Below are positions 2,871 to 37,690 of a DNA stretch of 64,000 bases, one piece after another. This DNA is from Escherichia coli (GTDB lineage Bacteria > Pseudomonadota > Gammaproteobacteria > Enterobacterales > Enterobacteriaceae). The notes beneath the pieces are model-generated. The model ran no database searches and was not told where the DNA came from. It saw only the letters and a list, made by a program, of their open reading frames with translations. The translations under genes were made by a program, and so were the position numbers. The stretch's first letter is position 1. The number at the start of each line of letters is the position of its first letter. Location: NCBI RefSeq assembly GCF_016026235.1, contig NZ_CP065613.1; one strand, given 5' to 3'.

Positions 2871-2883
2871 TGATCGTGCAAAT

Positions 2884-4920: not shown

Positions 4921-4922
4921 GG

Positions 4923-17401: not shown

Positions 17402-17833
17402 TTAACCTTTCCGCTCGACGGAAATCATGGTGACAAAAGGATAGCGTTGCCACGGGATTGCCCCGCCTTTCATATACATATGTGAAATCGTACCATCAAG
17501 ATAAAGCAGCTGCTCAACGTTCAGTTTCGCTTTGGCATAACAGGCAAAATCATAAAAATTTGTCGCCTGCTGGCTCAACAAAAACACGGCATTCCCATGT
17601 TTATTAATCCCAACACCGTTACGAATTTTACGTGAGGCGACGTTGGGATGAATACGCGGATTAATTACACCGTTTTCCATCAACATTGGCCCTGACTGCA
17701 CCGCAAACTGAATATCTTTACTGGCTTTAAAAGCATCTAGACGAACGATGCCGACTTTATCTCCCGCGACATAAAACACGCCGCCAGGACGGATAAAGAA
17801 ATTCCCTTCACCTGAAGCGAGATTTAACGCCAC
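17402..17833 (-). pseudogene. yigE: yigE (DUF2233) 3' portion, separated from its 5' portion by IS4
   Basis: 143 aa ORF fragment abutting the IS4 left end; together with 19269-19604 it reconstitutes a ~254 aa protein. Confidence 0.75.
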
Positions 17834-19268
17834 CTTCTGCTGTAATGCCGATCAGTTAAGGATCAGTTGACCGATCCAGTGGCTGTGTAAGAATCCGGAA
17901 ACGCTCACTTGTTTCCGGATTTTTTTATGCACATTGGACAGGCTCTTGATCTGGTATCCCGTTACGATTCTCTGCGTAACCCACTGACTTCTCTGGGGGA
18001 TTACCTCGACCCCGAACTCATCTCTCGTTGCCTTGCCGAATCAGGTACTGTAACGCTACGCAAGCGCCGTCTTCCCCTCGAAATGATGGTCTGGTGTATT
18101 GTTGGCATGGCGCTTGAGCGTAAAGAACCTCTTCACCAGATTGTGAATCGCCTGGACATCATGCTGCCGGGCAATCGCCCCTTCGTTGCCCCCAGTGCCG
18201 TTATTCAGGCCCGCCAGCGCCTGGGAAGTGAGGCTGTCCGCCGCGTGTTCACGAAAACAGCGCAGCTCTGGCATAACGCCACGCCGCATCCGCACTGGTG
18301 CGGCCTGACCCTGCTGGCCATCGATGGTGTGTTCTGGCGCACACCGGATACACCAGAGAACGATGCAGCCTTCCCCCGCCAGACACATGCCGGGAACCCG
18401 GCGCTCTACCCGCAGGTCAAAATGGTCTGCCAGATGGAACTGACCAGCCATCTGCTGACGGCTGCAGCCTTCGGCACGATGAAGAACAGCGAAAATGAGC
18501 TTGCTGAGCAACTTATAGAACAAACCGGCGATAACACTCTGACGTTAATGGATAAAGGTTATTACTCACTGGGACTGTTAAATGCCTGGAGCCTGGCGGG
18601 AGAACACCGCCACTGGATGATACCTCTCAGAAAGGGAGCGCAATATGAAGAGCTCAGAAAACTGGGTAAAGGCGATCATCTGGTGAAGCTGAAAACCAGC
18701 CCGCAGGCACGAAAAAAGTGGCCGGGACTGGGAAATGAAGTGACAGCCCGCCTGCTGACCGTGACGCGCAAAGGAAAAGTCTGCCATCTGCTGACGTCGA
18801 TGACGGACGCCATGCGCTTCCCCGGAGGAGAAATGGCGGATCTGTACAGTCATCGCTGGGAAATCGAACTGGGATACAGGGAGATAAAACAGACGATGCA
18901 ACTGAGCAGGCTGACGCTGAGAAGTAAAAAGCCGGAGCTTGTGGAGCAAGAGCTGTGGGGTGTCTTACTGGCTTATAATCTGGTGAGATATCAGATGATT
19001 AAAATGGCGGAACATCTGAAAGGTTACTGGCCGAATCAACTGAGTTTCTCAGAATCATGCGGAATGGTGATGAGAATGCTGATGACATTGCAGGGCGCTT
19101 CACCGGGACGTATACCGGAGCTGATGCGCGATCTTGCAAGTATGGGACAACTTGTGAAATTACCGACGAGAAGGGGAAGGGCCTTCCCGAGAGTGGTAAA
19201 GGAGAGGCCCTGGAAATACCCCACAGCCCCGAAAAAGAGCCAGTCAGTTGCTTAACTGACTGGCATTA
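17834..19268 (+). mobile_element. IS4 insertion sequence with 12 bp target-site duplication CACCTTCTGCTG
   Basis: Terminal inverted repeats TAATGCCGATCAGTTAAG (left) and CTTAACTGACTGGCATTA (right, 16/18 match); identical 12 bp direct repeats at 17822-17833 and 19269-19280. Confidence 0.9.
17927..19255 (+). CDS. insG: IS4 DDE transposase (442 aa from ATG 17927)
   Basis: Product [30 protein letters not shown]... recognised as IS4-family transposase; inside the IR-bounded element. Confidence 0.88.
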
Positions 19269-19604
19269 CACCTTCTGCTGACCGTTTTCGATGTACAAAC
19301 CGAGCGGCGCATAGCTTTCATCATAGATGCCGCCGTTCATCGCCATCTGCACCTGACCCTGACTATTCATATCCGCCAGCAGAGCATGTAACGTTCCCCA
19401 CGCTTCGCCATTAGCTTTTTGCCAGTACATTTTCACCCGCTCTGTTTGAGGATTAACGGTATACGCCTGTACGGTCAGCGTCGGATCTGAGAGTGCGCAA
19501 TCATCAGCGGCAACAGCAAACAAGGGAAGTAAGGTGAGGGTGAGAAAAATCTGTTTGAGATTCAAGGTGATCATTCCTTTACCAATGAGTAGCCGATGCG
19601 CCAT
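19269..19604 (-). pseudogene. yigE: yigE 5' portion (signal peptide and N-terminal domain), truncated by IS4
   Basis: 112 aa ORF with N-terminal signal peptide (LTLTLLPLFAVAADD) that runs into the IS4 right end. Confidence 0.75.
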
Positions 19605-19973
19605 TATAGGTCCTGGATGTTGGATTTTTTTATCCTGTTAGCGACCTTGACGAGTACCAAAAAGCGCGAAGTTCAACTATTGTTCTGTGGTGTTCTGTTG
19701 CGTGTTGACGGCAAAATTTTGCTGGCGTAACATGCGCGCACGATCACTCTAAGAGGACATTCGCCTTGGACACACCCAGTAGATACTGGCTCACTATCCT
19801 GTCATCCAGGATCAACTCCTAAGGCTATCCCTTTTTGCTGATAGCCTTAGCGGTTGTCAGCGACCTCAATTTTTCCCGTCGCGCTGAGTCAGGCTGTTTA
19901 ATGGTCTGAAACCCAATTTGTTTCTGTGTGCCCACCGAACTGTCCGATATTTTAAGCATTGGGAGTCCCGGTC

Positions 19974-20924
19974 ATGCTGAGCGCATTTCAACTGGAAAAT
20001 AACCGACTGACCCGGCTGGAAGTCGAAGAGTCACAACCCCTTGTAAATGCAGTATGGATTGATCTTGTCGAACCGGACGACGACGAGCGACTGCGCGTAC
20101 AATCTGAACTTGGCCAGAGCCTGGCAACCCGCCCGGAACTGGAAGACATCGAAGCATCGGCACGTTTCTTTGAAGACGACGACGGCCTGCATATTCACTC
20201 CTTCTTCTTCTTTGAAGATGCGGAAGATCACGCCGGTAACTCCACTGTGGCATTTACCATCCGTGATGGTCGTCTGTTTACTCTGCGTGAGCGTGAACTG
20301 CCCGCTTTTCGTCTGTATCGTATGCGTGCCCGTAGCCAGTCGATGGTAGACGGTAACGCCTACGAGCTGCTGCTGGATCTGTTCGAAACCAAAATCGAAC
20401 AGTTGGCAGATGAAATTGAAAATATCTATAGCGACCTGGAGCAGTTGAGCCGGGTGATTATGGAAGGGCATCAGGGCGATGAGTACGACGAGGCGCTCTC
20501 CACTCTGGCGGAACTGGAAGATATCGGCTGGAAAGTTCGCCTGTGTCTGATGGATACCCAGCGCGCGCTCAACTTCCTGGTGCGTAAAGCGCGTTTACCG
20601 GGTGGGCAACTGGAGCAGGCGCGTGAAATCCTGCGAGATATCGAATCCCTGCTGCCGCATAACGAATCCCTGTTCCAGAAGGTGAACTTCCTGATGCAGG
20701 CGGCGATGGGTTTTATCAACATCGAGCAGAACCGCATCATCAAAATCTTCTCGGTGGTATCCGTGGTATTCCTGCCGCCGACGCTCGTTGCTTCCAGCTA
20801 TGGGATGAACTTTGAGTTTATGCCAGAACTGAAGTGGAGTTTCGGCTACCCAGGCGCGATTATCTTTATGATCCTCGCGGGCCTGGCACCGTATCTGTAC
20901 TTTAAGCGCAAGAACTGGCTGTAA
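19974..20924 (+). CDS. corA: Mg2+/Co2+ transport protein CorA (316 aa from ATG 19974)
   Basis: [17 protein letters not shown]...; C-terminal [11 protein letters not shown] signature (GMN motif) and two TM helices. Confidence 0.95.
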
Positions 20925-20977
20925 TATGAGTGCCGGATAAAGCTATTTTTTTATCCGGCTTATTTCTAAAAATTGTC

Positions 20978-21457
20978 TTATTTAAAGTCATGCGGATTGA
21001 AAACTCGCTCTATTTTATTTTCTTGTGTTAATTGATACTCAGTAAAATCGTTAATACCAATATGAGTGTTACGATAAGGGTATTCATTAATAACCATTAA
21101 GTAATTTTTCACGATGCAATTATCATTGCTCTTAATTGTCGGGAAACAGTAGAGATCTTCATACGGCCCTTCGATATATTTTTTATAGTCAGTGAAGCCA
21201 TTACCGATATCAATGACATACCAGGTATGCCAACTACCTTCTGGTAGGGGATGTTGATTTTTAATTTCATTCTGATGCTTCAGATACCAATTTATTTTAT
21301 CGCTGTCAGTCCATGGCAGATGATCAACGACCAGAAAGACTGAATTGCCAGCATCAGAGTATGTATACAAAATCTGTACAGGACGCAATGTCCATAAATT
21401 ATAGATGCAGCATAGAAGAAATAAACATAATATAATTTTCTGGAGTTTGCTTTTCAT
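20978..21457 (-). CDS. Hypothetical protein with N-terminal membrane anchor or signal (159 aa); second gene of low-GC islet
   Basis: ORF with hydrophobic N-terminus (IILCLFLLCCIYNLW) and W/Y-rich soluble domain; start overlaps stop of the upstream 284 aa gene by 4 bp (ATGA); very AT-rich codon usage. Confidence 0.6.
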   Translation of the reverse strand: MKSKLQKIILCLFLLCCIYNLWTLRPVQILYTYSDAGNSVFLVVDHLPWTDSDKINWYLKHQNEIKNQHPLPEGSWHTWYVIDIGNGFTDYKKYIEGPYEDLYCFPTIKSNDNCIVKNYLMVINEYPYRNTHIGINDFTEYQLTQENKIERVFNPHDFK

Positions 21458-22308
21458 AGATAATTTTCGATTCTTTCGATAGTGTTAAAATTGGTGAAAA
21501 AAGGTTTGAAAGCAAAGTCTTTATGCCGTTGTAAAAAGAACCATATGCGAAAAAATCTATATTTGCTGTAAGTCTTGTTTTTGATATCAGTTACATCAAG
21601 ACCGAAGTGGTCCTGTGCTACAAAATGAATTGTTGCACTCCATCCTATAGCGTATTTTTGAAAACTTAAAAGAGATATTTTTTGAGCTGAAATATCATGA
21701 ACACTGATTCCTAAGCCATTAAAACTGTCCTCGAAGTCATTAAATTTATTTAGTCTTGATGAAAGTAATTTGGTTTTAATGCTTTGCAGGATAAGAGGTT
21801 GGTATCCTGTCGAGGGAGTTGAATTAATGCCATTTTCGATACATTCTTTGATTATTCGTATTGGACTATTATAACCATATTTATTTATTTTTTCATGAAA
21901 AGATAAATTTAATTGTTGGCTATGAAAATTGCTGCCATTTCCATATCTAAAATGTTCAATCAGATCTTCGATAAGTGTTTTATATTGTCCAAAAAAGGAA
22001 AGCATTTTTGCTAGTTCTTTCATTTCTGCAAATAAAATATCAGTGCATTCACGTTGTGATATTTTTGTTCCGGAACTTGAGGCACTAAAAGCAACATTAA
22101 TAGAACCTGGGCCAGGGAAATGGTATTTAATAAGTCTGTAAGGATCAACTTTTGCTGAGATATCGCTTAGGCCGAGTGAGAGAAAGTCTTGTTCTACCAT
22201 ATCACCATATTGCATATCATCAGCAGAAAAATCATCGAATAAACTAATAGTTTCGAAAAGTGTACAGGGAATATTAATTGGCGGAAGTAATATGTTATTC
22301 ATTTGCAT
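21454..22308 (-). CDS. Hypothetical cytoplasmic protein (284 aa); first gene of low-GC islet
   Basis: Long ORF in a low-GC segment absent from K-12 as I recall it; no recognisable Walker, GxSxG or nucleotidyltransferase motif on inspection. Confidence 0.6.
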   Translation of the reverse strand: MQMNNILLPPINIPCTLFETISLFDDFSADDMQYGDMVEQDFLSLGLSDISAKVDPYRLIKYHFPGPGSINVAFSASSSGTKISQRECTDILFAEMKELAKMLSFFGQYKTLIEDLIEHFRYGNGSNFHSQQLNLSFHEKINKYGYNSPIRIIKECIENGINSTPSTGYQPLILQSIKTKLLSSRLNKFNDFEDSFNGLGISVHDISAQKISLLSFQKYAIGWSATIHFVAQDHFGLDVTDIKNKTYSKYRFFRIWFFLQRHKDFAFKPFFTNFNTIERIENYL

Positions 22309-22515
22309 TTGCCTTGGTTATATTTAAGCTCAATATCAATTCGAGAACAAATGCTAGGGTAAAAAAATATTTAAAAAAGAAGTACACTTCACATTTTTTC
22401 ATTACATCTCTGAAGAGAACCTCGTTAATGATTGGTCTTGCTCATTGTTAATAACAAAATGTTGAATTTACCGATTAGGAAACTTTTTCCTACGCGGATT
22501 GCCTCCAGTTCTGGC

Positions 22516-22635
22516 ATGAACTTTGAGTTTATGCCAGAACTGAAGTGGGGCTTCGGCTACCCTGGCGCGATTATCTTTATGATCCTCGCGGGCCTGACAC
22601 CGTATCTGTACTTTAAGCGTAAGAACTGGCTGTAA
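22516..22635 (+). pseudogene. corA: Duplicated corA 3' end (last ~39 codons plus stop), ~96% identical to 20805-20924
   Basis: Direct alignment: 115/120 identical; weaker homology continues ~20 bp upstream. ORF track reports a 67 aa ORF ending in the CorA C-terminus. Confidence 0.85.
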
Positions 22636-22659
22636 CTATACGATGTCGCTGTGAGTAAG

Positions 22660-23046
22660 TTAGTGTGCTGACAGCGACATTTTAGCCGAGGGAATCGCAG
22701 ATAACATAATTGTTGTGAATAATATCCATGCCACGTTGAGTTGGACGCTTAATGACTCACATCTCACCCCTTCAATTGCTGCAGAGATAATAGAAAAAAG
22801 TGTCAAACCCAATGAAATCAATACAAAGTAGATTGCCTTACATCCAGTATCTCTTATTCTTTTTGCTCCAATATTGATATTTACATAGGTATTATTAATA
22901 ACCAGAATAAAACTCAAAGCCAGGTTGATATCATTCAAAGTTATTAATATTGACCATGATGTTAATGTATAGATTATGAACTGAAAGCGTGATAAACGCT
23001 CAAGCCTGGATGGGTAGAATATATTTCTGATGGATGATTTGAACAT
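22660..23046 (-). CDS. yigF: Small inner membrane protein (DUF2628-like)
   Basis: 128 aa hydrophobic ORF in the expected position between corA and rarD; low GC. Confidence 0.6.
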   Translation of the reverse strand: MFKSSIRNIFYPSRLERLSRFQFIIYTLTSWSILITLNDINLALSFILVINNTYVNINIGAKRIRDTGCKAIYFVLISLGLTLFSIISAAIEGVRCESLSVQLNVAWILFTTIMLSAIPSAKMSLSAH

Positions 23047-23245
23047 TTTTACATTGTTTTATATATATAATTGTTTTGAATATATATTACCTGAATTATG
23101 TGGTTTGCATATATATATGCAATATAGCAGTCTTTGCATTGATAACTATACAGTAGTAATTTAGAGTGTGTAAGTTTTTATTGATGGGGTATATTTTAAT
23201 TAAATATAATTGAAATGTATTTTTATTCTATAAACAATATCTTGG

Positions 23246-23560
23246 GTGAATGGATTCTATATGGGAAATGGTAACTTTTGGCAGTTGTTCTTGGGTAAAG
23301 AACCTTACAGCAAAAAATCTTATTTTGTTAAGGCATGGTTATTGTGGTGGGCTATTACCATCCTTGTTCTATTTATTTTAAGCCTGACTACGACATTAAA
23401 TTTAAGAAGTATAGGTATAGGGTTAAGTTTTGGGTTTTGTCAAATTCTTGGTAGATATACGATGTCTCTAGGATGGAGTAAGTACTGGGGAGTTTTGGGG
23501 GTATTTCCTGTAACAAATATTGTTCTTTTTCTTATCTTAATTTTTTTCAAAAAAAGATAA
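23246..23560 (+). CDS. yigG: Small inner membrane protein
   Basis: 104 aa ORF with two predicted TM segments, divergent from yigF; low GC. Confidence 0.5.
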   Translation: MNGFYMGNGNFWQLFLGKEPYSKKSYFVKAWLLWWAITILVLFILSLTTTLNLRSIGIGLSFGFCQILGRYTMSLGWSKYWGVLGVFPVTNIVLFLILIFFKKR

Positions 23561-23606
23561 ATAAGTCAGTGGGTAGGCTCTTTAAACGGCCTACCCATGT
23601 TAATTC

Positions 23607-24494
23607 TTAACTTTTTCTACGCTGCGTATAAATCGCATCCATCACAAAAATTGCCAGCGCCACCCAAATAAAGGCGAAAGTCACCATCTTATCGGCACCC
23701 GGTTTTTCACCATAAAACGTCACAGCCAGCAGGAACATCAGCGTCGGGCCAATGTACTGGAAAAAGCCTAACGTTGAGAGACGCAAGCGCGTGGCAGCGG
23801 CGGTAAAACACAACAGCGGTACGGTAGTGACAATACCGGCGGCGATCAGCAGTAAATTCAGCGACATCGGGTTTTGCCCCATATGGCTGGTTGAGCTGTC
23901 GGCAATAGCAAACAGGTAAATTGCCGCCACGGGCAGCAGCCACATGGTTTCGATTAACATGCCGGTTTGCGCTTCAACGGCAATCTTCTTGCGTACCAGA
24001 CCGTAGAAGGCAAAACTAAATGCTAGCCCCAGCGCGATAATAGGTAGCGAACCAAAAGTCCACAGCTGGACCAACACGCCACATATCGCCAGAATCACCG
24101 CCAGCCATTGCATCCGGCGGAATCGCTCGCCGAGGAAAATCATCCCCAGCACAATGTTCACCAGCGGGTTAATAAAGTAACCAAGGCTCGCTTCCAGCAT
24201 ATGGTGATTGTTCACCGCCCAGATAAACAGTAGCCAGTTGCCACCAATCAGCACGGCAGAGACTGCCAGCATAAAAATTTTCTGTGGCGTCTGAATCAGC
24301 GTTTTTAAATAGGACCACTGGCGGCAAATGCTCATCAGCACCACCATAAAGAAAAACGACCAGATCACGCGATGCGTCAGGATTTCATCGGCGGGCACGT
24401 AGTAAATCAACTTGAAGTACGCTGGCGCTATACCCCAAATAAAATAAGCGGCAAGAGCGAGTAATACGCCCTGCCGCGTTTGTTTTGCATCCAT
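23607..24494 (-). CDS. rarD: EamA/DMT-family transporter RarD
   Basis: 295 aa, 10-TM DMT-like profile; conserved position. Confidence 0.88.
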   Translation of the reverse strand: MDAKQTRQGVLLALAAYFIWGIAPAYFKLIYYVPADEILTHRVIWSFFFMVVLMSICRQWSYLKTLIQTPQKIFMLAVSAVLIGGNWLLFIWAVNNHHMLEASLGYFINPLVNIVLGMIFLGERFRRMQWLAVILAICGVLVQLWTFGSLPIIALGLAFSFAFYGLVRKKIAVEAQTGMLIETMWLLPVAAIYLFAIADSSTSHMGQNPMSLNLLLIAAGIVTTVPLLCFTAAATRLRLSTLGFFQYIGPTLMFLLAVTFYGEKPGADKMVTFAFIWVALAIFVMDAIYTQRRKS

Positions 24495-24545
24495 CGGGAA
24501 TACTCATTTTTAATTGGTAACAGCAGTTTACCTGCTTTTACGTTA

Positions 24546-25013
24546 TCAACCTACCATATAGGTGGCGGTGGCACTGGCAATATAAAGCTGTTCTTCATTG
24601 TGTAATTCAACGCGGGCGACGGCGACTTTATTGCCTGCACGCAACAGACTACTGGTAGCAGTAAAACGCTCGCCCCTGCCTGGGCGCAGATAATCAACGC
24701 GAAGATCAATGGTCCCCATCCGCGATAGCCGCTGGCGTAGTTCATCTTCACTGATGGTTTCGTGGCGGGTTAAGGTACTTCCCACGCACACCAGACCTGC
24801 GGCGACATCCAGCGCCGACGCAATGACCCCGCCGTGCAAAATGCTTTGCGCCCAGTTACCCACCATCATTGGCTGATTTTTAAAGGCCAGCTGTGCGAAC
24901 TCTTTTTCGTAACGCTCCAGCTCCATCCCTAACGCGCGGTTAAATGGCATGTGATAAACAAACATCTCACCCACTAATTTCAGGGCTTGTTCAGCGGTCA
25001 GTACGGCAGACAT
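24546..25013 (-). CDS. yigI: PaaI/hotdog-fold thioesterase (155 aa from ATG 25013; ORF track extends to 25031)
   Basis: Hotdog thioesterase-like sequence; position between rarD and pldA. Confidence 0.85.
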
Positions 25014-25177
25014 ATCATCCTTACACTTCATTGGTTAATGAAATGTTGATTTTATGCTTCTTTGTTGTTGGTTTCTACTTTAGGAAGGGATAACTAACGG
25101 CTATGGAGTTAAGTATGTAAAATAGCCCGCAGAAAAATATTCACCTTATCAATAATTCGTTACGGAGAACACGACCG

Positions 25178-26047
25178 ATGCGGACTCTGCAGGGCTGGTT
25201 GTTGCCGGTGTTTATGTTGCCTATGGCAGTATATGCACAAGAGGCAACGGTGAAAGAGGTGCATGACGCGCCAGCGGTGCGTGGCAGTATTATCGCCAAT
25301 ATGCTGCAGGAGCATGACAATCCGTTCACGCTCTATCCTTATGACACCAACTACCTCATCTACACACAAACCAGCGATCTGAATAAAGAAGCGATTGCCA
25401 GTTACGACTGGGCGGAAAATGCGCGTAAGGATGAAGTAAAGTTTCAGTTGAGCCTGGCATTTCCGCTGTGGCGTGGGATTTTAGGCCCGAACTCGGTGTT
25501 GGGTGCGTCTTATACGCAAAAATCCTGGTGGCAACTGTCCAATAGCGAAGAGTCTTCACCGTTTCGTGAAACCAACTACGAACCGCAATTGTTTCTCGGT
25601 TTTGCCACCGATTACCGTTTTGCAGGCTGGACGTTGCGCGATGTAGAGATGGGGTATAACCACGACTCTAACGGGCGTTCAGACCCGACCTCCCGCAGCT
25701 GGAACCGCCTTTATACTCGCCTGATGGCAGAAAACGGTAACTGGCTGGTAGAAGTGAAGCCGTGGTATGTGGTGGGTAATACTGACGATAACCCGGATAT
25801 CACCAAATATATGGGTTACTACCAGCTTAAAATCGGCTATCACCTCGGTGATGCGGTGTTGAGTGCGAAAGGACAGTACAACTGGAACACCGGCTACGGC
25901 GGCGCGGAGTTAGGCTTAAGTTACCCGATCACCAAACATGTGCGCCTTTATACTCAGGTTTACAGCGGCTATGGCGAATCGCTCATCGACTATAACTTCA
26001 ACCAGACCCGTGTCGGTGTGGGGGTTATGCTAAACGATTTGTTTTGA
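25178..26047 (+). CDS. pldA: Outer membrane phospholipase A
   Basis: 289 aa with signal peptide and beta-barrel pattern; C-terminal aromatic residue (F). Confidence 0.93.
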   Translation: MRTLQGWLLPVFMLPMAVYAQEATVKEVHDAPAVRGSIIANMLQEHDNPFTLYPYDTNYLIYTQTSDLNKEAIASYDWAENARKDEVKFQLSLAFPLWRGILGPNSVLGASYTQKSWWQLSNSEESSPFRETNYEPQLFLGFATDYRFAGWTLRDVEMGYNHDSNGRSDPTSRSWNRLYTRLMAENGNWLVEVKPWYVVGNTDDNPDITKYMGYYQLKIGYHLGDAVLSAKGQYNWNTGYGGAELGLSYPITKHVRLYTQVYSGYGESLIDYNFNQTRVGVGVMLNDLF

Positions 26048-26179
26048 TGAACGGTTGAGTGGTTGGCAAATCTGGAATCCAGCATCCAGGATTACCCTCT
26101 CAGAGACTAAAAGCATTGCAGTTTCTCGCGCAGGCGCTGAAAATAGCGCCTGTTTTTATTTCAGGCAATCGGGGTGAAT

Positions 26180-28009
26180 GTGGCGCAGGCGGAAGTGTTG
26201 AATCTGGAGTCCGGAGCTAAACAGGTTTTACAAGAAACCTTTGGCTACCAACAGTTTCGCCCCGGCCAGGAAGAAATTATCGACACTGTGCTTTCCGGTC
26301 GCGATTGCCTGGTCGTCATGCCCACCGGTGGCGGAAAATCCCTTTGCTATCAAATTCCTGCCTTATTGCTAAACGGCCTTACCGTGGTTGTTTCACCGCT
26401 GATTTCGTTGATGAAAGATCAGGTGGATCAACTGCAAGCCAACGGCGTGGCGGCGGCGTGCCTTAACTCGACGCAAACCCGCGAACAGCAACTTGAAGTG
26501 ATGACAGGCTGCCGCACCGGGCAAATTCGTCTGCTTTATATCGCCCCGGAACGCCTGATGCTGGATAACTTTCTTGAGCATCTGGCGCACTGGAATCCGG
26601 TGTTATTAGCCGTTGATGAAGCGCACTGTATCTCCCAATGGGGCCACGATTTCCGCCCGGAATATGCCGCGCTCGGTCAGTTGCGCCAGCGGTTCCCGAC
26701 GCTGCCGTTTATGGCGCTGACCGCCACAGCCGACGACACCACGCGCCAGGATATCGTGCGCCTGCTGGGGCTGAACGATCCGCTGATTCAAATCAGCAGT
26801 TTTGACCGTCCGAATATTCGCTACATGCTGATGGAGAAGTTCAAACCGCTCGATCAGTTGATGCGCTACGTGCAGGAACAGCGCGGTAAGTCCGGCATTA
26901 TCTACTGCAACAGCCGGGCGAAAGTAGAAGACACCGCTGCGCGCCTGCAAAGCAAGGGTATTAGCGCGGCGGCCTATCATGCCGGGCTGGAAAATAATGT
27001 CCGCGCCGACGTGCAGGAGAAATTCCAGCGCGATGACCTGCAAATTGTGGTGGCGACGGTGGCGTTCGGCATGGGCATCAATAAACCAAACGTTCGCTTC
27101 GTGGTCCACTTTGATATTCCGCGCAATATCGAATCCTATTATCAGGAAACCGGTCGCGCCGGGCGTGATGGCCTGCCCGCGGAAGCGATGCTGTTTTACG
27201 ATCCGGCCGATATGGCGTGGCTGCGCCGTTGTCTGGAAGAGAAGCCGCAGGGGCAGTTGCAGGATATCGAACGTCATAAACTCAATGCGATGGGCGCTTT
27301 TGCCGAAGCGCAAACTTGCCGTCGTCTGGTACTGCTGAACTATTTTGGCGAAGGGCGTCAGGAGCCGTGCGGGAACTGCGATATCTGCCTCGATCCGCCG
27401 AAACAGTACGACGGTTCAACCGATGCTCAGATTGCCCTTTCCACCATTGGTCGTGTGAATCAGCGTTTTGGTATGGGCTATGTGGTGGAAGTGATTCGCG
27501 GCGCTAATAACCAGCGTATCCGCGACTATGGTCATGACAAACTAAAAGTCTACGGTATGGGCCGTGATAAAAGTCATGAACATTGGGTGAGCGTGATCCG
27601 CCAGCTGATTCACCTCGGTCTGGTGACGCAAAATATTGCCCAGCATTCTGCCCTACAACTGACAGAGGCTGCGCGTCCGGTGCTGCGCGGCGAATCCTCT
27701 TTGCAACTTGCCGTGCCGCGTATCGTGGCGCTCAAACCGAAAGCGATGCAGAAATCGTTCGGCGGCAACTATGATCGCAAACTGTTCGCCAAATTACGCA
27801 AACTGCGTAAATCGATAGCCGATGAAAGTAATGTCCCGCCGTACGTGGTGTTTAACGACGCAACCTTGATTGAGATGGCTGAACAGATGCCGATCACCGC
27901 CAGCGAAATGCTCAGCGTTAACGGCGTTGGGATGCGCAAGCTGGAACGCTTTGGCAAACCGTTTATGGCGCTGATTCGTGCGCATGTTGATGGCGATGAC
28001 GAAGAGTAG
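26180..28009 (+). CDS. recQ: ATP-dependent DNA helicase RecQ (609 aa from GTG 26180; ORF track starts at 26174)
   Basis: [30 protein letters not shown]...; Walker A PTGGGKS, DEAH box (VDEAH), zinc-binding Cys cluster, HRDC region. Confidence 0.95.
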
Positions 28010-28072
28010 TCAGCAGCATAAAAAAGTGCCAGTATGAAGACTCCGTAAACGTTTCCCCCGCGAGTCAAATGT

Positions 28073-28693
28073 ATGTTGATGTTATTTCTCACCGTCGCCA
28101 TGGTGCACATTGTGGCGCTTATGAGCCCCGGTCCCGATTTCTTTTTTGTCTCTCAGACCGCTGTCAGTCGTTCCCGTAAAGAAGCGATGATGGGCGTGCT
28201 GGGCATTACCTGCGGCGTAATGGTTTGGGCTGGGATTGCGCTGCTTGGCCTGCATTTGATTATCGAAAAAATGGCCTGGCTGCATACGCTGATTATGGTG
28301 GGCGGTGGCCTGTATCTCTGCTGGATGGGTTACCAGATGCTACGCGGTGCACTGAAAAAAGAGGCGGTTTCTGCACCTGCGCCACAGGTCGAGCTGGCGA
28401 AAAGTGGGCGCAGTTTCCTGAAAGGTTTACTGACCAATCTCGCTAATCCGAAAGCGATTATCTACTTTGGCTCGGTGTTCTCATTGTTTGTCGGTGATAA
28501 CGTTGGCACTACCGCGCGCTGGGGCATTTTTGCGCTGATCATTGTCGAAACGCTGGCGTGGTTTACCGTCGTTGCCAGCCTGTTTGCCCTGCCGCAAATG
28601 CGCCGTGGTTATCAACGTCTGGCGAAGTGGATTGATGGTTTTGCCGGGGCGTTATTTGCCGGATTTGGCATTCATTTGATTATTTCGCGGTGA
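28073..28693 (+). CDS. rhtC: Threonine efflux protein (LysE/RhtB family)
   Basis: 206 aa, 6-TM LysE-type exporter; rhtC-rhtB convergent pair. Confidence 0.9.
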   Translation: MLMLFLTVAMVHIVALMSPGPDFFFVSQTAVSRSRKEAMMGVLGITCGVMVWAGIALLGLHLIIEKMAWLHTLIMVGGGLYLCWMGYQMLRGALKKEAVSAPAPQVELAKSGRSFLKGLLTNLANPKAIIYFGSVFSLFVGDNVGTTARWGIFALIIVETLAWFTVVASLFALPQMRRGYQRLAKWIDGFAGALFAGFGIHLIISR

Positions 28694-28711
28694 TGCCAGA
28701 CGCGTCTTCAG

Positions 28712-28745
28712 AGTAAGTCGGATAAGGCGTTTACGCCGCATCCGA
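28712..28745. repeat. REP element
   Basis: GATAAGGCGTTTACGCCGCATCCGACATTA between convergent rhtC and rhtB. Confidence 0.65.
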
Positions 28746-28754
28746 CATTATTTT

Positions 28755-29375
28755 TCACGCATGCCTCGCCGATGCTAACAGCGCTCCCACCAGCATAAAC
28801 AACGAGCCGAAAATCTTATTCAGCGCCTTCATCTGCTTTGGTCCTTTAATCCATAGAGCAATCCGTTGAGCAAGGGTGGCGTAACCGATCATCACAATAA
28901 TATCGACCACAATAGTGGTGACGCCGAGCACGATATACTGCATCAGTTGCGGCTGTTGCGGCATGATGAATTGCGGAAATAGCGCCGCCAGAAACACAAT
29001 ACTTTTGGGATTGGTGAGATTCACAAAAACTGCGCGCTGGAACAAATGTCGACGCGATTGAGTAGAGGCCAGCGATTTAAGGTCAATTGCACCAGCGGCG
29101 CGCCACTGCTGGATTCCCAGCCAAATCAAGTAAGCCGCGCCTGCCCACTTCAACACTTCAAACGCAATCACTGAGCGGGAAAATAGCGTCCCCAACCCCA
29201 CGCCAACCAGCACAATATGAATCGCCAGTCCGGTCTGAAGCCCAGCAATAGACGCCACCGCGCCGCGATAACCGTGGTTGAGCGAGGTGGTCATAGTGTT
29301 GATTGCACCAGAGCCTGGCGACAGGCTTAAAATGATCGATGTCAGCAGGTAGGCAAACCACCATTCTAAGGTCAT
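28755..29375 (-). CDS. rhtB: Homoserine/homoserine lactone efflux protein (LysE/RhtB family)
   Basis: 206 aa, LysE-type exporter paralog. Confidence 0.9.
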
Positions 29376-29485
29376 GATGAACTCCCGGTGTGTCTATTTT
29401 TGTGCCACAATACGCTACTGTCGCAGCGTTGTGTCAGGCACGCTAAAAAAAACGATTTTACGTGGTTTAAGAGGCAGATTACCCG

Positions 29486-30508
29486 ATGTTTCAGCAGCAA
29501 AAAGACTGGGAAACAAGAGAAAACGCGTTTGCTGCTTTTACCATGGGACCGCTGACTGATTTCTGGCGTCAGCGTGATGAAGCAGAGTTTACTGGTGTGG
29601 ATGACATTCCGGTGCGCTTTGTCCGTTTTCGCGCACAGCACCATGACCGGGTGGTAGTCATCTGCCCGGGGCGTATTGAGAGCTACGTAAAATATGCGGA
29701 ACTGGCCTATGACCTGTTCCATTTGGGGTTTGATGTCTTAATCATCGACCATCGCGGGCAGGGACGTTCCGGTCGCCTGTTAGCCGATCCGCATCTCGGG
29801 CATGTTAATCGCTTTAATGATTATGTTGATGATCTGGCGGCATTCTGGCAGCAGGAGGTTCAGCCCGGTCCGTGGCGTAAACGCTATATACTGGCACATT
29901 CGATGGGCGGTGCGATCTCCACATTATTTCTGCAACGCCATCCAGGTGTATGTGACGCCATTGCGCTAACTGCGCCAATGTTTGGGATCGTGATTCGTAT
30001 GCCGTCATTTATGGCACGGCAGATCCTCAACTGGGCCGAAGCGCATCCACGTTTCCGTGATGGCTATGCAATAGGCACCGGGCGCTGGCGCGCGTTGCCG
30101 TTTGCTATCAACGTACTGACCCACAGCAGACAGCGATATCGACGTAACTTACGCTTCTATGCTGATGACCCAACGATTCGCGTCGGTGGGCCGACCTACC
30201 ATTGGGTACGCGAAAGTATTCTGGCTGGCGAACAGGTGTTAGCCGGTGCGGGTGATGACGCCACGCCAACGCTTCTCTTACAAGCTGAAGAGGAACGCGT
30301 GGTGGATAACCGCATGCATGACCGTTTTTGTGAACTCCGCACCGCCGCGGGCCATCCTGTCGAAGGAGGACGACCGTTGGTAATTAAAGGTGCTTACCAT
30401 GAGATCCTTTTTGAAAAGGACGCAATGCGCTCAGTCGCGCTCCACGCCATTGTTGATTTTTTCAACAGGCATAACTCACCCAGCGGAAACCGCTCTACAG
30501 AGGTTTAA
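29486..30508 (+). CDS. pldB: Lysophospholipase L2
   Basis: 340 aa alpha/beta hydrolase with GHSMGG nucleophile elbow. Confidence 0.92.
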   Translation: MFQQQKDWETRENAFAAFTMGPLTDFWRQRDEAEFTGVDDIPVRFVRFRAQHHDRVVVICPGRIESYVKYAELAYDLFHLGFDVLIIDHRGQGRSGRLLADPHLGHVNRFNDYVDDLAAFWQQEVQPGPWRKRYILAHSMGGAISTLFLQRHPGVCDAIALTAPMFGIVIRMPSFMARQILNWAEAHPRFRDGYAIGTGRWRALPFAINVLTHSRQRYRRNLRFYADDPTIRVGGPTYHWVRESILAGEQVLAGAGDDATPTLLLQAEEERVVDNRMHDRFCELRTAAGHPVEGGRPLVIKGAYHEILFEKDAMRSVALHAIVDFFNRHNSPSGNRSTEV

Positions 30509-30515
30509 ATTTCTT

Positions 30516-31316
30516 ATGTACCAGGTTGTTGCGTCTGATTTAGATGGCACGTTACTTTCTCCCGACCATACGTTATCCCCTTACGCCAAAGAAACTCTGA
30601 AGCTGCTCACCGCGCGCGGCATCAACTTTGTGTTTGCGACCGGTCGTCACCACGTTGATGTGGGGCAAATTCGCGATAATCTGGAGATTAAGTCTTACAT
30701 GATTACCTCCAATGGTGCGCGCGTTCACGATCTGGATGGTAATCTGATTTTTGCTCATAACCTGGATCGCGACATTGCCAGCGATCTGTTTGGCGTAGTC
30801 AACGACAATCCGGACATCATTACTAACGTTTATCGCGACGACGAATGGTTTATGAATCGCCATCGCCCGGAAGAGATGCGCTTTTTTAAAGAAGCGGTGT
30901 TCAAATATGCGCTGTATGAGCCTGGATTACTGGAGCCGGAAGGCGTCAGCAAAGTGTTCTTCACCTGCGATTCCCATGAACAACTGCTGCCGCTGGAGCA
31001 GGCGATTAACGCTCGTTGGGGCGATCGCGTCAACGTCAGTTTCTCTACCTTAACCTGTCTGGAAGTGATGGCGGGCGGCGTTTCAAAAGGCCATGCGCTG
31101 GAAGCGGTGGCGAAGAAACTGGGCTACAGCCTGAAGGATTGTATTGCGTTTGGTGACGGGATGAACGACGCCGAAATGCTGTCGATGGCGGGGAAAGGCT
31201 GCATTATGGGCAGTGCGCACCAGCGTCTGAAAGACCTTCATCCCGAGCTGGAAGTGATTGGTACTAATGCCGACGACGCGGTGCCGCATTATCTGCGTAA
31301 ACTCTATTTATCGTAA
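30516..31316 (+). CDS. yigL: HAD-family sugar phosphatase (Cof subfamily) (266 aa from ATG 30516; ORF track over-extends to 30390)
   Basis: MYQVVASDLDGTLLSPDH... with DxD HAD motif. Confidence 0.92.
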   Translation: MYQVVASDLDGTLLSPDHTLSPYAKETLKLLTARGINFVFATGRHHVDVGQIRDNLEIKSYMITSNGARVHDLDGNLIFAHNLDRDIASDLFGVVNDNPDIITNVYRDDEWFMNRHRPEEMRFFKEAVFKYALYEPGLLEPEGVSKVFFTCDSHEQLLPLEQAINARWGDRVNVSFSTLTCLEVMAGGVSKGHALEAVAKKLGYSLKDCIAFGDGMNDAEMLSMAGKGCIMGSAHQRLKDLHPELEVIGTNADDAVPHYLRKLYLS

Positions 31317-31391
31317 TCGTTCTTTATTTGGTCAGTTGTCAACCTGATACTTCGCTACAATGGATACTCGTTAATCAAAGAGTTTTCCATT

Positions 31392-32291
31392 GTGGCGCTA
31401 CTTATCATCACCACGATTCTGTGGGCCTTCTCCTTTAGCTTTTATGGCGAGTACCTTGCGGGGCACGTCGATAGCTATTTTGCGGTGCTGGTGCGCGTTG
31501 GCCTGGCGGCACTCGTTTTTCTGCCGTTTCTGCGTACCCGTGGCAATAGCCTGAAAACAGTCGGCCTGTATATGCTGGTGGGCGCGATGCAGCTTGGCGT
31601 GATGTATATGCTGAGTTTCCGCGCTTATCTCTATCTGACGGTTTCCGAACTGCTGCTGTTCACCGTACTGACGCCGCTCTACATCACGCTGATTTATGAC
31701 ATCATGAGTAAGCGCCGTCTGCGCTGGGGATATGCTTTTAGTGCCTTGTTGGCGGTGATTGGTGCCGGGATTATTCGCTATGATCAGGTCACCGACCATT
31801 TCTGGACTGGCTTGTTGCTGGTGCAACTCTCCAATATCACTTTTGCCATCGGCATGGTGGGTTACAAACGCCTGATGGAAACTCGCCCGATGCCGCAGCA
31901 TAACGCCTTTGCGTGGTTCTATCTTGGCGCGTTCCTGGTGGCGGTAATTGCATGGTTCTTGCTGGGAAATGCGCAGAAAATGCCGCAAACCACGTTGCAA
32001 TGGGGCATTCTGGTGTTTCTTGGCGTAGTGGCTTCCGGGATTGGCTACTTTATGTGGAACTACGGCGCGACGCAGGTGGACGCCGGAACGCTGGGAATTA
32101 TGAATAATATGCACGTTCCGGCAGGGCTGCTGGTAAACCTGGCTATCTGGCACCAACAGCCGCACTGGCCAACGTTTATTACAGGCGCGCTGGTGATCCT
32201 GGCCTCACTGTGGGTGCATCGTAAGTGGGTCGCTCCGCGCTCTTCACAAACGGCAGATGATCGCAGGCGTGATTGCGCGCTGAGCGAATAA
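31392..32291 (+). CDS. yigM: DMT-family inner membrane transporter (biotin uptake in K-12)
   Basis: 299 aa 10-TM ORF; 3' end overlaps the 3' end of convergent metR. Confidence 0.85.
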
Positions 32292-33132
32292 ACGCTTCCG
32301 TAACTGGCTGACGCTGCTCGCCATCGCGCACGGCGGCGTACAGTCGGCTCCACAAGCCTTCGCCCAGGGTTTTGGTCACCACCAGACCCTGGCGCTCAAA
32401 ACTCTCTACTACCCAATGCGGTAGCGCGGCAATACCCATCCGCGCGGCAACCATCTGAATCAACAATAAGGTGTTATCGACGCTTTTTAGTGACGGACTG
32501 ACGCCTGCCGGCTGAAGAAAATGCCGCCAGACATCCAGTCGACTACGCTGCACCGGATAAATTAATAGCGTCTCGCTGGCGAGATCTTCCGGTGTAATAC
32601 GCGTTTTTGCCGCCAGTGGATGGTCAGGTGCTAACACCAGACGCACTTCATAGTCGAACATCGGCGAATAATGCAGACCACTGCGCGGCAGAATATCGGA
32701 CGTCATTACCAGATCCAGCTCTCCCTGTTGCAAGGCGGGCTGCGGGTCAAATGTCACGCCCGATTTAAAGTCCATCTCGACCTGCGGCCAGTTCTTATGG
32801 AAATTTTCTAACGCGGGCGTCAGCCACTGTATACAGCTATGGCACTCAATGGCAATGCGCAGACGCGTCTGCTGCGGTTCATTGCAGGCTTGCAGTGCCT
32901 GGCTAATTTGTGGCAGCACCTGGTTTGCCAGTTGCAACAGGATTTCTCCCTGCGGTGTAAAGCGAAGCGGCTGGCTTTTACGCACAAATAGCCGGAAGCC
33001 AAGGCGTTGTTCCAGATCGCTAAACTGGTGAGACAGGGCGGATTGCGTCTGATGCAACGTCGCCGCAGCGGCTGCGAGAGAGCCGCAGTTCCGCAACGCT
33101 TGTAGCGTTTTCAGGTGTTTTACTTCGATCAT
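32179..33132 (-). CDS. metR: LysR-type transcriptional activator MetR
   Basis: 317 aa; N-terminal HTH ([36 protein letters not shown]); divergent from metE. Confidence 0.95.
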
Positions 33133-33204
33133 GAAAGTCCTTCACTTCGGCATGAATAATTTGCGCTTGAGGAATATACAGTAACCGCCAATTATGGATG
33201 TGTA

Positions 33205-33240
33205 AACATCTGGACGGCTAAAATCCTTCGTCTTTTAAAT
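33205..33240. promoter_or_regulatory. Candidate MetJ operator (tandem met-box-like repeats) in the metR-metE control region
   Basis: CATCTGGACGGCTAAAATCCTTCGTCTTTT contains 8 bp units resembling the AGACGTCT met box; placement by eye only. Confidence 0.3.
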
Positions 33241-33367
33241 TTATGGTGCGTTGGCTGCGTTTCTCCACCCCGGTCACTTACTTCAGTAAGCTCCCGGGGA
33301 TGAATAAACTTGCCGCCTTCCCTAAATTCAAAATCCATAGTATTTACATATAATTAGAGGAAGAAAA

Positions 33368-35629
33368 ATGACAATATTGAATCACACCCTCGGTTTCCCT
33401 CGCGTTGGCCTGCGTCGCGAGCTGAAAAAAGCGCAAGAGAGTTATTGGGCAGGGAACTCCACGCGTGAAGAACTGCTGGCGGTAGGGCGTGAATTGCGTG
33501 CTCGTCACTGGGATCAACAAAAGCAAGCGGGTATCGACCTGCTGCCGGTGGGCGATTTTGCCTGGTACGATCATGTACTGACCACCAGTTTGCTGCTGGG
33601 TAATGTTCCGCCACGTCATCAGAACAAAGACGGTTCGGTAGATATCGACACCCTGTTCCGTATTGGTCGTGGACGTGCGCCGACTGGCGAACCTGCGGCG
33701 GCAGCGGAAATGACCAAATGGTTTAACACCAACTATCACTACATGGTGCCGGAGTTCGTTAAAGGCCAACAGTTCAAACTGACCTGGACGCAGCTGCTGG
33801 AGGAAGTGGACGAGGCGCTGGTGCTGGGCCACAACGTTAAGCCTGTGCTGCTGGGGCCGGTTACTTACCTGTGGCTGGGGAAAGTGAAAGGTGAACAGTT
33901 TGACCGCCTTAGCCTGCTGAACGACATTCTGCCGGTTTATCAGCAAGTGCTGGCAGAACTGGCGAAACGCGGCATCGAGTGGGTACAGATTGATGAACCC
34001 GCGCTGGTACTGGAACTACCACAGGCGTGGCTGGACGCATACAAACCCGCTTACGACGCGCTCCAGGGACAGGTGAAACTGCTGCTGACCACCTATTTTG
34101 AAGGCGTAACGCCAAATCTCGACACGATTACTGCGCTGCCTGTTCAGGGTCTGCATGTTGACCTCGTACATGGTAAAGATGACGTTGCTGAACTGCACAA
34201 GCGCCTGCCTTCTGACTGGTTGCTGTCTGCGGGTCTGATCAATGGTCGTAACGTCTGGCGCGCCGATCTTACCGAGAAATATGCGCAAATTAAGGACATT
34301 GTCGGCAAACGTGATTTATGGGTGGCATCTTCCTGCTCGTTGCTGCACAGCCCCATCGACCTGAGCGTGGAAACGCGTCTTGATGCAGAAGTGAAAAGCT
34401 GGTTTGCCTTCGCCCTGCAAAAATGTCATGAACTGGCACTGCTGCGAGATGCGCTGAACAGTGGTGATACGGCAGCTCTGGCAGAGTGGAGCGCTCCAAT
34501 TCAGGCGCGTCGTCACTCTACTCGTGTACATAACCCGGCAGTAGAAAAGCGTCTGGCGGCGATCACCGCCCAGGACAGCCAGCGTGCGAATGTCTATGAA
34601 GTGCGTGCCGAAGCCCAGCGTGCGCGTTTTAAACTGCCAGCGTGGCCGACCACCACGATTGGTTCCTTCCCGCAAACCACGGAAATTCGTACCCTGCGTC
34701 TGGATTTCAAAAAGGGTAATCTCGACGCCAACAACTACCGCACGGGCATTGCGGAACATATCAAGCAGGCCATTGTTGAACAGGAACGTTTGGGACTGGA
34801 TGTGCTGGTACATGGCGAGGCCGAGCGTAATGACATGGTGGAATACTTTGGCGAGCACCTCGACGGATTTGTCTTTACGCAAAACGGTTGGGTACAGAGC
34901 TACGGTTCCCGCTGCGTGAAGCCACCGATTGTCATTGGTGACATTAGCCGCCCGGCACCGATTACCGTGGAGTGGGCGAAGTATGCGCAATCTCTGACTG
35001 ATAAACCGGTGAAAGGGATGCTGACTGGCCCGGTGACCATTCTCTGCTGGTCGTTCCCGCGTGAAGATGTCAGCCGTGAAACCATCGCCAAACAAATTGC
35101 GCTGGCGCTGCGTGATGAAGTGGCGGACCTGGAAGCCGCAGGAATTGGCATCATCCAGATTGATGAACCGGCGCTGCGCGAAGGTTTACCGCTGCGTCGT
35201 AGCGACTGGGATGCATATCTCCAGTGGGGCGTGGAGGCCTTCCGTATCAACGCCGCCGTGGCGAAAGATGACACACAAATCCACACTCACATGTGTTATT
35301 GCGAGTTCAACGACATCATGGATTCGATTGCGGCACTGGATGCAGACGTCATCACCATCGAAACCTCGCGTTCCGACATGGAGTTGCTGGAGTCGTTTGA
35401 AGAGTTTGATTATCCGAATGAAATCGGTCCAGGCGTCTATGACATTCACTCGCCAAACGTACCGAGCGTGGAATGGATTGAAGCCTTGCTGAAGAAAGCG
35501 GCAAAACGCATTCCGGCAGAGCGCCTGTGGGTCAACCCGGACTGTGGCCTGAAAACGCGCGGCTGGCCAGAAACCCGCGCGGCACTGGCGAACATGGTGC
35601 AGGCGGCGCAGAATTTGCGTCGGGGATGA
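33368..35629 (+). CDS. metE: Cobalamin-independent methionine synthase
   Basis: 753 aa; starts [24 protein letters not shown]...; C-terminal zinc-binding His/Cys/Glu motifs. Confidence 0.96.
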
Positions 35630-35734
35630 TGAATATTAACGAGTCACTGTAAATTGCAGTACGATGAAAGAGGCAAAACTGCCTGATACCAGGCCTACAT
35701 AATTTATGCAATTTATTGAATTTTTGAGTTTTGT

Positions 35735-35775
35735 TGGCCGGACAAGGCGTTCACGCCGCATCCGGCATGAACAAC
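35735..35775. repeat. REP element
   Basis: GGCCGGACAAGGCGTTCACGCCGCATCCGGCATGAACAA downstream of metE. Confidence 0.65.
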
Positions 35776-35913
35776 GCGCACTTTGCCAATAATCTGATGG
35801 CTTCCATCACCGGAAGCCATTTTGCTATCTGCGCCCGTTCAGATACAGAAATAACCGAATCATTTTTACGCAAAATATAATCCTGAGCGATTTGTTCAGT
35901 AATCAACGCTACG

Positions 35914-37296: not shown

Positions 37297-37690
37297 CCTT
37301 GAAAAACCTTTTGTTAATTCTTTTGTGAAAGAGAAATAGTATTGTTGTTTTTTTTTACCTTTATTTACGCCTAAAAGTGATGAACTAAAATGTGAAAAAC
37401 AAAATGTTTCACTTTAATATCTTTTTATCAGGAAGGTCTGAGATGATTTATAATTAATGTGAATGTGTTGATAATAATTAATGTTTGTTTGTGAATGGGA
37501 GTTGATGGTAAATCTCTAAGGTGTCTTCCATTGAAGAGACTCATTTATGACTATGACTTGCCGACTTTTTTAAGGTCAAATAGCGGAGTCGTAATCTCCA
37601 ATCAATTCATACTGATTATTTTTTGGGGGACAGAGATGGCAGCAAAACGCACTCGTTCACTCACCATCTCAAATATAGACTAAGAGGAAA

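Follow-up and report, generated by a model that had tools for sequence, protein, structure and literature searches.

A predicted orphan DUF3289–DUF943 effector–immunity operon and a duplicated corA tail at the polymorphic corA–rarD site of Escherichia coli

The corA–rarD interval and its direct repeat

The window analysed here is a stretch of 64,000 nucleotides (nt) from the Escherichia coli contig NZ_CP065613.1 (RefSeq assembly GCF_016026235.1), and the element in question is an AT-rich islet between corA and rarD, filled by two minus-strand open reading frames (ORFs) and followed by a partial second copy of the corA 3' end, hereafter corA' (Table 1). The two genes encode a DUF3289 and a DUF943 protein (together, the pair) and are predicted from their sequences to form an orphan type VI secretion system (T6SS) effector–immunity operon. 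Taken as a whole, the explanation that we consider probable is that such an operon occupies a polymorphic site, and that the duplication of the corA tail next to it results from one illegitimate join.

The last 147 nt of corA (20778–20924) are copied at 22489–22635 with 91% identity in the within-window comparison. The final 120 nt of the two copies present five mismatches and the preceding 27 nt are ~74% identical, in agreement with the initial annotation of this DNA, made from the letters alone, which had described a recurring corA end with five mismatches in 120 nt and weaker homology further upstream. The blastn self-match within the locus (E-value ~1e-55) indicates that the repeat is not due to chance. 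Repeats are a general risk for assemblers, and nothing beyond this speaks for an assembly artefact, a possibility already raised in the initial annotation; as the same contiguous junction between the pair and corA' is present in 1,709 complete genomes, obtained by many laboratories and on many platforms, and as the two copies differ by single-nucleotide polymorphisms (SNPs), the chance of such an artefact is negligible.

The islet (20925–22488; 1,564 bp) starts exactly at the corA stop codon, and its guanine–cytosine (GC) fraction is 0.322, compared with 0.529 in corA, 0.506 in rarD and 0.515 in the whole window. The AT-richness noted initially is therefore real, but not its supposed limit, since the low GC does not stop at the second repeat and extends to 23606 (0.319 in 22636–23606). 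The yigF–yigG interval of K-12 is also low (0.347), and the corA–rarD interval is therefore AT-rich in every structural type. As the initial annotation had stated, the two genes have no counterpart in K-12, in which just 42 nt separate corA from yigF.

No integrase or transposase was found among the ORFs of 20925–22635, as previously noted, nor in those reaching 23606, and no integrase or recombinase was detected in 13 related loci covering every structural type sampled. Likewise, the PADLOC defence models gave no match with any of the four ORFs of the interval, and the two ORFs of the second cassette, located between corA' and rarD, match no Pfam model and nothing significant in NCBIfam besides a weak relation to YigG. 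The hairpin at the left edge of the islet (DNA fold of −10 kcal/mol, z = −5.1) is also located 3' of corA in genomes that have the pair without the duplication. A sigma-70 scan 5' of the DUF3289 gene retrieved no strong consensus site, and the overall number of sites was not above that of shuffled sequence.

Table 1. Features of the corA–rarD interval, with positions in the window.
Feature	Position	Strand	Basis and remarks
corA (Mg/Co transporter), intact	19974..20924	+	ORF list; 99.3% identity to K-12 corA; annotated corA in a near-identical genome; proximal repeat copy formed by its last 147 nt
GC-rich hairpin with T/A runs, likely bidirectional terminator	20932..20959		Terminator scan; lies where corA and the DUF943 gene converge; marks the islet's left edge
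DUF943 protein, 159 amino acids (aa), predicted immunity protein	20978..21457	-	PF06092; N-terminal membrane anchor ~8–26
DUF3289/YPO3983-family protein, 284 aa, predicted periplasm-acting T6SS effector	21454..22308	-	TIGR03034, PF11692 and PDB 9jdi matches
Presumed promoter region, 5' of the DUF3289 gene	22309..22488	-	Right end of the DNA shared with pair-only genomes lacking the duplication
corA' pseudogene fragment, the 147-nt end of corA with its stop codon; distal repeat copy and recombination scar	22489..22635	+	Repeat match; incomplete "CorA family" pseudogene in RefSeq
Near-perfect hairpin inside corA'	22501..22547		Made by the lineage-specific changes 22509 C>T and 22511 A>C
Second low-GC cassette, in place of the K-12 yigF–yigG	22636..23606		GC 0.319; two ORFs and a hairpin
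ORF of 128 aa, distant YigG relative (second cassette)	22660–23046	-	29% identity to YigG across 125 aa in blastp (E = 4e-5); weak NCBIfam PRK11371 match
ORF of 104 aa, hypothetical membrane protein (second cassette)	23246–23560	+	ORF list
Terminator-like hairpin, 3' of the 104-aa ORF	23569–23598		Hairpin
rarD, conserved right flank of the variable interval	23607..24494	-	ORF list, annotation, comparison

The predicted DUF3289 toxin and DUF943 immunity protein

The 284-aa protein matches TIGR03034 with 436.6 bits (cutoff 156.45) over residues 10–282 and PF11692 with an E-value of 1.7e-83 over positions 2–270 of the 272 of the model; its membership of the DUF3289/YPO3983 effector family is well supported. 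No signal peptide was found in this protein. Directly downstream, the start of the DUF943 gene overlaps the DUF3289 stop by 4 nt (ATGA), and its 159-aa product matches PF06092 nearly over its entire length (E = 1.7e-26, positions 1–150 of 151). A hydrophobic 19-mer at residues 8–26 gives this protein a topology in agreement with that described for the immunity protein T6IC1.

At the structural level, the DUF3289 protein shows a sequence match to PDB entry 9jdi, named "DUF3289 family protein", in which the conserved DHFGLD motif, with D233, H234 and D238, is aligned. This entry is the complex of the BtpeA C-terminal domain with BtpiA, a T6SS effector–immunity pair of Bacteroides fragilis; the BtpeA literature provided a passing mention only, and no activity data were found there. 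An AlphaFold2 model built from 25 homologues is of moderate quality (predicted local distance difference test 70.4, predicted template modelling (TM) score 0.64), and its sole significant Foldseek match in the PDB is again 9jdi_A (E = 1e-7, probability 1.0, TM score 0.41–0.48). The model is thus supportive rather than strong evidence for a DUF3289-like fold. Stand-alone, orphan members of the DUF3289 family exist, so that linkage to T6SS delivery genes is not obligatory in this family.

The function can be approached through the homologues of the pair. The DUF3289 domain of T6EC1, a PAAR-fused protein encoded in a T6SS operon of Yersinia pseudotuberculosis, poisons E. coli when placed in the periplasm and makes the cells round; its DUF943 neighbour T6IC1 rescues them (PMC11148199). 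From this rounding upon periplasmic expression, a colicin M-like fold and a cell-wall target have been proposed for DUF3289 (PMC11148199). In Aeromonas jandaei, both the secretion of an orphan DUF3289 protein and the killing by it depend on the T6SS (PMC12135965), and a DUF3289–DUF943 pair has been linked to T6SS in Klebsiella (PMC12469244). A literature search for corA together with yigF retrieved nothing relevant.

By analogy, a T6SS whose genes lie elsewhere in the genome would deliver the DUF3289 protein to the periplasm of neighbouring bacteria, where this protein would damage the cell envelope, possibly through the colicin M-like attack on cell-wall synthesis proposed in the literature, to which the assignment of this mechanism goes back. 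The translationally coupled DUF943 protein, probably anchored in the inner membrane and facing the periplasm, would protect the producer and its kin. We infer both the T6SS dependence in this strain and the biochemical target of the toxin.

Several observations weigh against this reading and must be considered. T6SS-dependent secretion and killing are known only from homologues of the E. coli protein. The latter has no delivery element (PAAR, VgrG, Hcp, a MIX/PIX/WHIX-type or other known domain), the Pfam match spanning the whole protein, and no adaptor gene adjoins it, its neighbours being corA and corA'. The match of its model to the colicin M-like PaeM is weak and not significant (4g76; E = 0.35, probability 0.18, 86 columns, TM score 0.17). 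Strains E16 and NCTC9008 combine a frameshift in the DUF3289 gene with an intact DUF943. Finally, FDAARGOS_943, the closest complete genome (99.97% identity over window positions 19269–37704), encodes a T6SS cluster with a Tle1-like effector beside the tRNA-Asp gene aspV (record positions 2,654,000–2,689,000), in which the insertion sequence (IS) IS21 interrupts tssC and one vgrG is cut short beside an IS600; the weapon may therefore be unusable in this genome.

The absence of a delivery domain and of an adjoining T6SS gene, the strains keeping only DUF943 intact and the disrupted tssC would also fit a pair that is no T6SS module in E. coli, acting as a self-contained toxin–immunity or addiction pair, or as an immunity island retained solely for resistance to attack by others, with another delivery route, if any. 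Nevertheless, homologues are PAAR-fused or located in T6SS operons, an orphan DUF3289 protein is secreted and kills T6SS-dependently, the best structural match is a T6SS effector (9jdi), and most sampled genomes, like the window, retain an intact effector gene, so that we regard this possibility as unlikely and favour an orphan T6SS effector and its immunity protein.

Distribution and structural types in E. coli

The pair was counted in 5,426 complete E. coli genomes, requiring at least 80% of window positions 20700–22900. It is present in 2,634 of them (48.5%) and absent from K-12, so that the locus is not carried by most E. coli including K-12, a distribution that, according to the initial annotation, would have made it core; still, it is far from rare. 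RefSeq already annotates these genes as "YPO3983 family protein" and "DUF943 family protein", together with a partial "CorA family" pseudogene.

For the pangenome comparison suggested in the initial annotation, junction-specific queries together with 13 inspected loci define five structures, with occupied and empty sites and a precise junction at 22488|22489. Type A (corA–yigF–yigG–rarD, as in K-12) comprises ~2,660 genomes, including ~554 with a yigFG allele that is 79% identical. Type B (corA–pair–corA'–second cassette–rarD) is the structure of the window, O157:H7, O145 and O111, and is found in 1,409 genomes, and type C (corA–pair–corA'–yigF–yigG–rarD) in ~300. Type D (corA–pair–rarD) lacks corA' and is found in 928 genomes. 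Finally, type E (corA–second cassette–rarD) lacks the pair and is restricted to ~21 genomes. Accordingly, the second cassette is present in 1,430 genomes, 1,409 of which also have the islet.

All three sampled type C genomes have an internal stop, twice in yigG and once in yigF. A contig scan with the DUF3289 protein, which required exact peptide words and was no survey of other Escherichia species, gave eight loci, among them that of Salmonella diarizonae discussed below. Two others, contigs placed in "uncultured Alistipes" and "uncultured Clostridium" metagenome-assembled genomes, are 99% identical to the locus (corA', pair and rarD) and are evidently mis-binned E. coli DNA. Some 2 kb from corA, between uvrD and yigE, a 903-bp gene of the S-adenosylmethionine (SAM) hydrolase/SAM-dependent halogenase family is present in the sampled pair-only genomes, in the hybrid EC0026B and in 18KM2445, and is absent from K-12, the window and SMN013SH2.

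Origin of the corA duplication

The initial annotation interpreted the duplicated corA end as the footprint of an integration of foreign DNA. In type D genomes, homology to the window extends over corA and the two genes and ends exactly at 22488, the corA-derived sequence of the window starting at 22489; past this breakpoint, ~44 nt particular to type D lead into the 84 nt on the downstream side of rarD, which K-12 shares. Salmonella enterica subsp. diarizonae displays the type D order (corA–DUF943–DUF3289–rarD–yigI–pldA), also without corA repeat, and the pair has therefore been in this slot for a long time without it. As the 928 type D genomes and S. diarizonae contain the pair without repeat, the duplication is not the footprint of the entry of the pair, and that interpretation has to be abandoned. 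The junction sequences suggest that the duplication marks one event, in which the pair would have been stacked in tandem with a second cassette.

The same data bear on the decayed integrative island or prophage remnant, in which an integrase-bearing element with a replacement corA 3' end would have inserted site-specifically in corA and later lost everything except two cargo genes. The layout is indeed that of an intact gene with a substituted 3' end, followed by foreign DNA and by the displaced native 3' fragment as a direct repeat, and an imperfect inverted repeat is found near the start of the repeat. However, no integrase or other mobility ORF remains in any structural type sampled, the same site is occupied by the pair without any repeat in type D and S. 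diarizonae, the inverted repeat is near-perfect only in the lineage of the window, where it arose by later mutation, and the phage collection contains no related sequence apart from one misfiled Salmonella contig. Such a remnant is thus very improbable. The initial annotation had offered either a decayed island or a homologous exchange through corA: exchange via corA and rarD is clearly the route by which the locus spreads, given the mosaic tails and islet described below, and a rare, decayed island is at odds with a pair found in 48.5% of the genomes.

All eight of the sampled type B and C loci have the identical breakpoint and the identical five mismatches in the first 20 nt of corA', which suggests a single founding event for these hybrids. 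The corA–rarD interval is an old polymorphic site with alternative low-GC cassettes, either the pair, yigF–yigG, or a third pair of small membrane proteins. In one illegitimate join, type D DNA lying ~180 nt 5' of the DUF3289 gene would have been connected to position −147 of a corA gene located ahead of a different cassette, thereby placing the two cassettes in tandem with corA' left between them. As to direction, we infer that the join may have occurred either way: pair DNA may have come in, anchored by homology in corA, or corA'-cassette DNA, anchored in rarD, and homology in one of these two genes presumably resolved the second end. Regarding microhomology at the E. coli joint (22488|22489), both flanking sides are strongly diverged.

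This scenario must be interpreted cautiously on three counts. The single origin is deduced from eight sequenced junctions among the 1,709 genomes and from megablast coverage counts. Later recombination has effaced the founding direction and the parental alleles. Moreover, the first 20 nt of corA' (22489–22508) concentrate 5 of the ~8 differences from corA (binomial P ~0.002). These nucleotides were compared with a mosaic of the two parental sequences, with the pair-only parental sequence and with a Salmonella corA allele and match none of them; their divergence may come from error-prone repair at the joint.

A Campbell-type insertion was also considered, in which an end-joined circle containing a corA tail and the pair would have entered by a single homologous crossover in the ~120–147 nt of the recipient corA tail. 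The single crossover of a circle does yield an insert flanked by direct repeats of the homologous segment, and the illegitimate joint 22488|22489 would be the closure point of that circle. Nevertheless, 147 nt of homology is short for RecA-mediated integration, and no circular form or replicon was found in the plasmid and phage searches. Since its product is the same sequence as that of the linear, one-sided model, this scheme is a variant of our best explanation and not a true alternative; we deem it rather improbable. In the plasmid and phage collections, no full-length islet was found on true plasmids or phages: the two full-length "plasmid" matches are records of 1.0 Mb and 4.8 Mb, which because of their size were taken as chromosomal DNA, and the phage matches do not extend beyond the Salmonella contig mentioned above.

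Later exchange, probable loss and mutation

Once formed by the proposed join, the hybrid spread by homologous recombination via the flanking core genes, with the corA tails swapping SNPs by gene conversion. SNPs that separate the two tails of the window (G/C, T/C and A/T among others) are found in the opposite copy in O157:H7 and in varied combinations elsewhere. Similarly, the islet is a mosaic relative to the window: the identity is 94–99.8% for DUF943 and 88–99.4% for DUF3289, and the values combine without regard to structural type. Therefore, homologous recombination and gene conversion have erased the pattern of parental alleles. The initial annotation had ascribed the five mismatches to one tail brought by the donor, and had asked which tail matches the allele of empty sites; neither can be read from the mismatches of the window, as the same SNPs lie in the proximal or in the distal copy depending on the strain. 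For the same reason, we dropped a first assignment of the distal copy as the resident tail, drawn from the comparison with K-12, after 12 more genomes displayed SNPs shuffled between copies.

The pair could also have been occasionally deleted by recombination between the corA tails. The one type E tail that was examined is as expected from a crossover between the repeats of an O157-like type B genome. Given the rarity of type E relative to type B, and this tail, type E is best read as loss of the pair via the direct repeats, and the ~21 genomes seem to have lost it in this way.

The corA' of the window has additionally been modified by the substitutions at 22509 and 22511 (GCTATGG to GTTCTGG), both of which turn palindrome mismatches into base pairs; the fold of the hairpin reaches −17.7 kcal/mol in the window, compared with −10.9 in the corA' of a yigFG-type hybrid and −7.3 in functional corA. 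Among the sampled genomes, these changes are specific to the window and FDAARGOS_943, and they look like a single template-switch mutation at a quasi-palindrome.

A parallel in Salmonella and a plasmid-borne segment

A second case is found in Salmonella enterica subsp. houtenae ATCC BAA-1581, with the order corA–pair–rarD'–corA'–pair–rarD (locus record 1011–5229). This tandem duplication covers 2,110 bp at 97% identity, and its joint connects rarD to corA position −285 with 1 nt of microhomology. Therefore, considering the E. coli hybrids and the independent S. houtenae case, the stacking of cassettes by illegitimate joins, with a corA' scar left behind, has occurred at least twice at this site. 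The two S. houtenae units are almost identical outside two patches, one in the immunity gene (9 differences in 100 nt) and one in the toxin gene (46 differences in 300 nt), which suggests diversification of the effector–immunity interface through co-varying specificity determinants.

A chromosomal segment of 1,699 bp, 99% identical to the window, is present in IncHI1 plasmids (R27, NC_002305.1; pHCM1; ~50 others, mostly conjugative). In R27, locus record positions 1400–3098 correspond to window positions 19324–21022 and contain part of yigE, ysgD and all of corA. They also take in 98 nt from the start of the islet, among them the final 45 nt of DUF943; there the segment ends abruptly at what we take to be an IS1 terminal repeat. 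This implies that the segment was captured from a host in which the pair already adjoined corA.

Neighbouring elements

An IS4-family element of 1,426 bp (~17831–19268), encoding a 448-aa transposase (17909–19255; NF033592, 303.7 bits), splits yigE into ORFs 17402–17833 and 19266–19604 and is accompanied by a ~12-bp target duplication. FDAARGOS_943, which is otherwise near-identical and is rich in IS1, IS600, IS21 and ISEc60 copies, lacks this element.

On the minus strand, between metE and ysgA (~35751–37296), the window contains a second, decayed orphan T6SS module. It comprises a frameshifted or truncated tssD (Hcp; TIGR03344, 70.6 bits over residues 4–91 of ORF 36616–37128), then an ORF of 180 aa, by its position the coding sequence that RefSeq calls "colicin", and two small candidate immunity ORFs; this module is reminiscent of an Hcp fused to a toxin domain. 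Beside it, FDAARGOS_943 carries an additional IS1 that is absent from the window.

Significance and comparison with known systems

Our analysis proposes a function and a history for DNA found in about half of E. coli, including O157:H7, as a likely interbacterial weapon with its antidote, located between two core genes at a site prone to recombination. The locus would show, in a natural setting, that cassettes can be stacked, shuffled and deleted without mobile-element machinery, through a single illegitimate join and later homologous recombination, and it flags YigF and YigG as alternatives at a conflict locus. The pair is a member of a known effector–immunity family in a common, already annotated locus, and its recombination history is unsurprising to a specialist. 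Current understanding is unchanged, and the value of these observations lies in the annotation and in the case study.

A broader reading would make corA–rarD an ancient conflict locus of Escherichia and Salmonella, in which the corA 3' end serves as a repeated handle for stacking, displacing and deleting cassettes in an Rhs-like or contact-dependent inhibition (CDI)-like manner, and in which the uncharacterised small membrane proteins YigF and YigG and their divergent alleles take part, e.g., as orphan immunity or resistance factors, instead of being unrelated housekeeping genes. We consider this idea tentative and rather doubtful. In Rhs and CDI loci, incoming toxin–immunity cassettes recombine via a conserved handle and push the older cassettes downstream together with a fragment of that handle. 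The corA site shares with their orphan modules the tandem cassettes with a piece of the conserved upstream gene between them, which at this site is the corA 3' end, and the recurrence of this arrangement (E. coli and S. houtenae). In contrast, the handle is here an unrelated housekeeping gene and the displaced E. coli cassette is no recognisable toxin–immunity pair, so that the resemblance is an analogy only.

For the proposed join, the closest precedent is homology-facilitated illegitimate recombination, known experimentally from Acinetobacter, Pseudomonas stutzeri and Streptococcus pneumoniae. The likeness consists of one end in long homology (corA or rarD) and another joint without homology (22488|22489), but here the process is deduced from natural sequences only. 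E. coli is not naturally transformable under usual conditions, and the DNA would have entered by transduction or conjugation. The locus also resembles phage 21 and e14 at icd, where an intact gene with a substituted 3' end and the displaced native 3' fragment likewise form an imperfect direct repeat; nevertheless, integrase, prophage and a defined att core are missing at corA, and the same cargo occurs without the repeat.

Regarding the toxin, the lipid II phosphatase bacteriocins colicin M and PaeM differ from the E. coli DUF3289 protein, which has no colicin-type receptor-binding or translocation domains. The colicin M motif is DxYDx5HR, and that of DUF3289 is DHFGLD. The closest known counterparts of the pair are the DUF3289–DUF943 pairs linked to T6SS (T6EC1/T6IC1, the Aeromonas pair and BtpeA), with which it shares full-length matches to both family models, a toxin gene directly upstream of and overlapping the immunity gene, and an immunity protein (~157–159 aa) that is anchored at its N-terminus, with its body in the periplasm. 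The orphan location away from a T6SS cluster is as in Aeromonas and as reported for Klebsiella. In contrast, T6EC1 has a PAAR fusion and is encoded within a T6SS operon, and the N-terminal part of BtpeA is long, whereas the E. coli protein is a bare domain of 284 aa, and the immunity protein of Aeromonas jandaei differs in being a three-helix protein of 95 aa.

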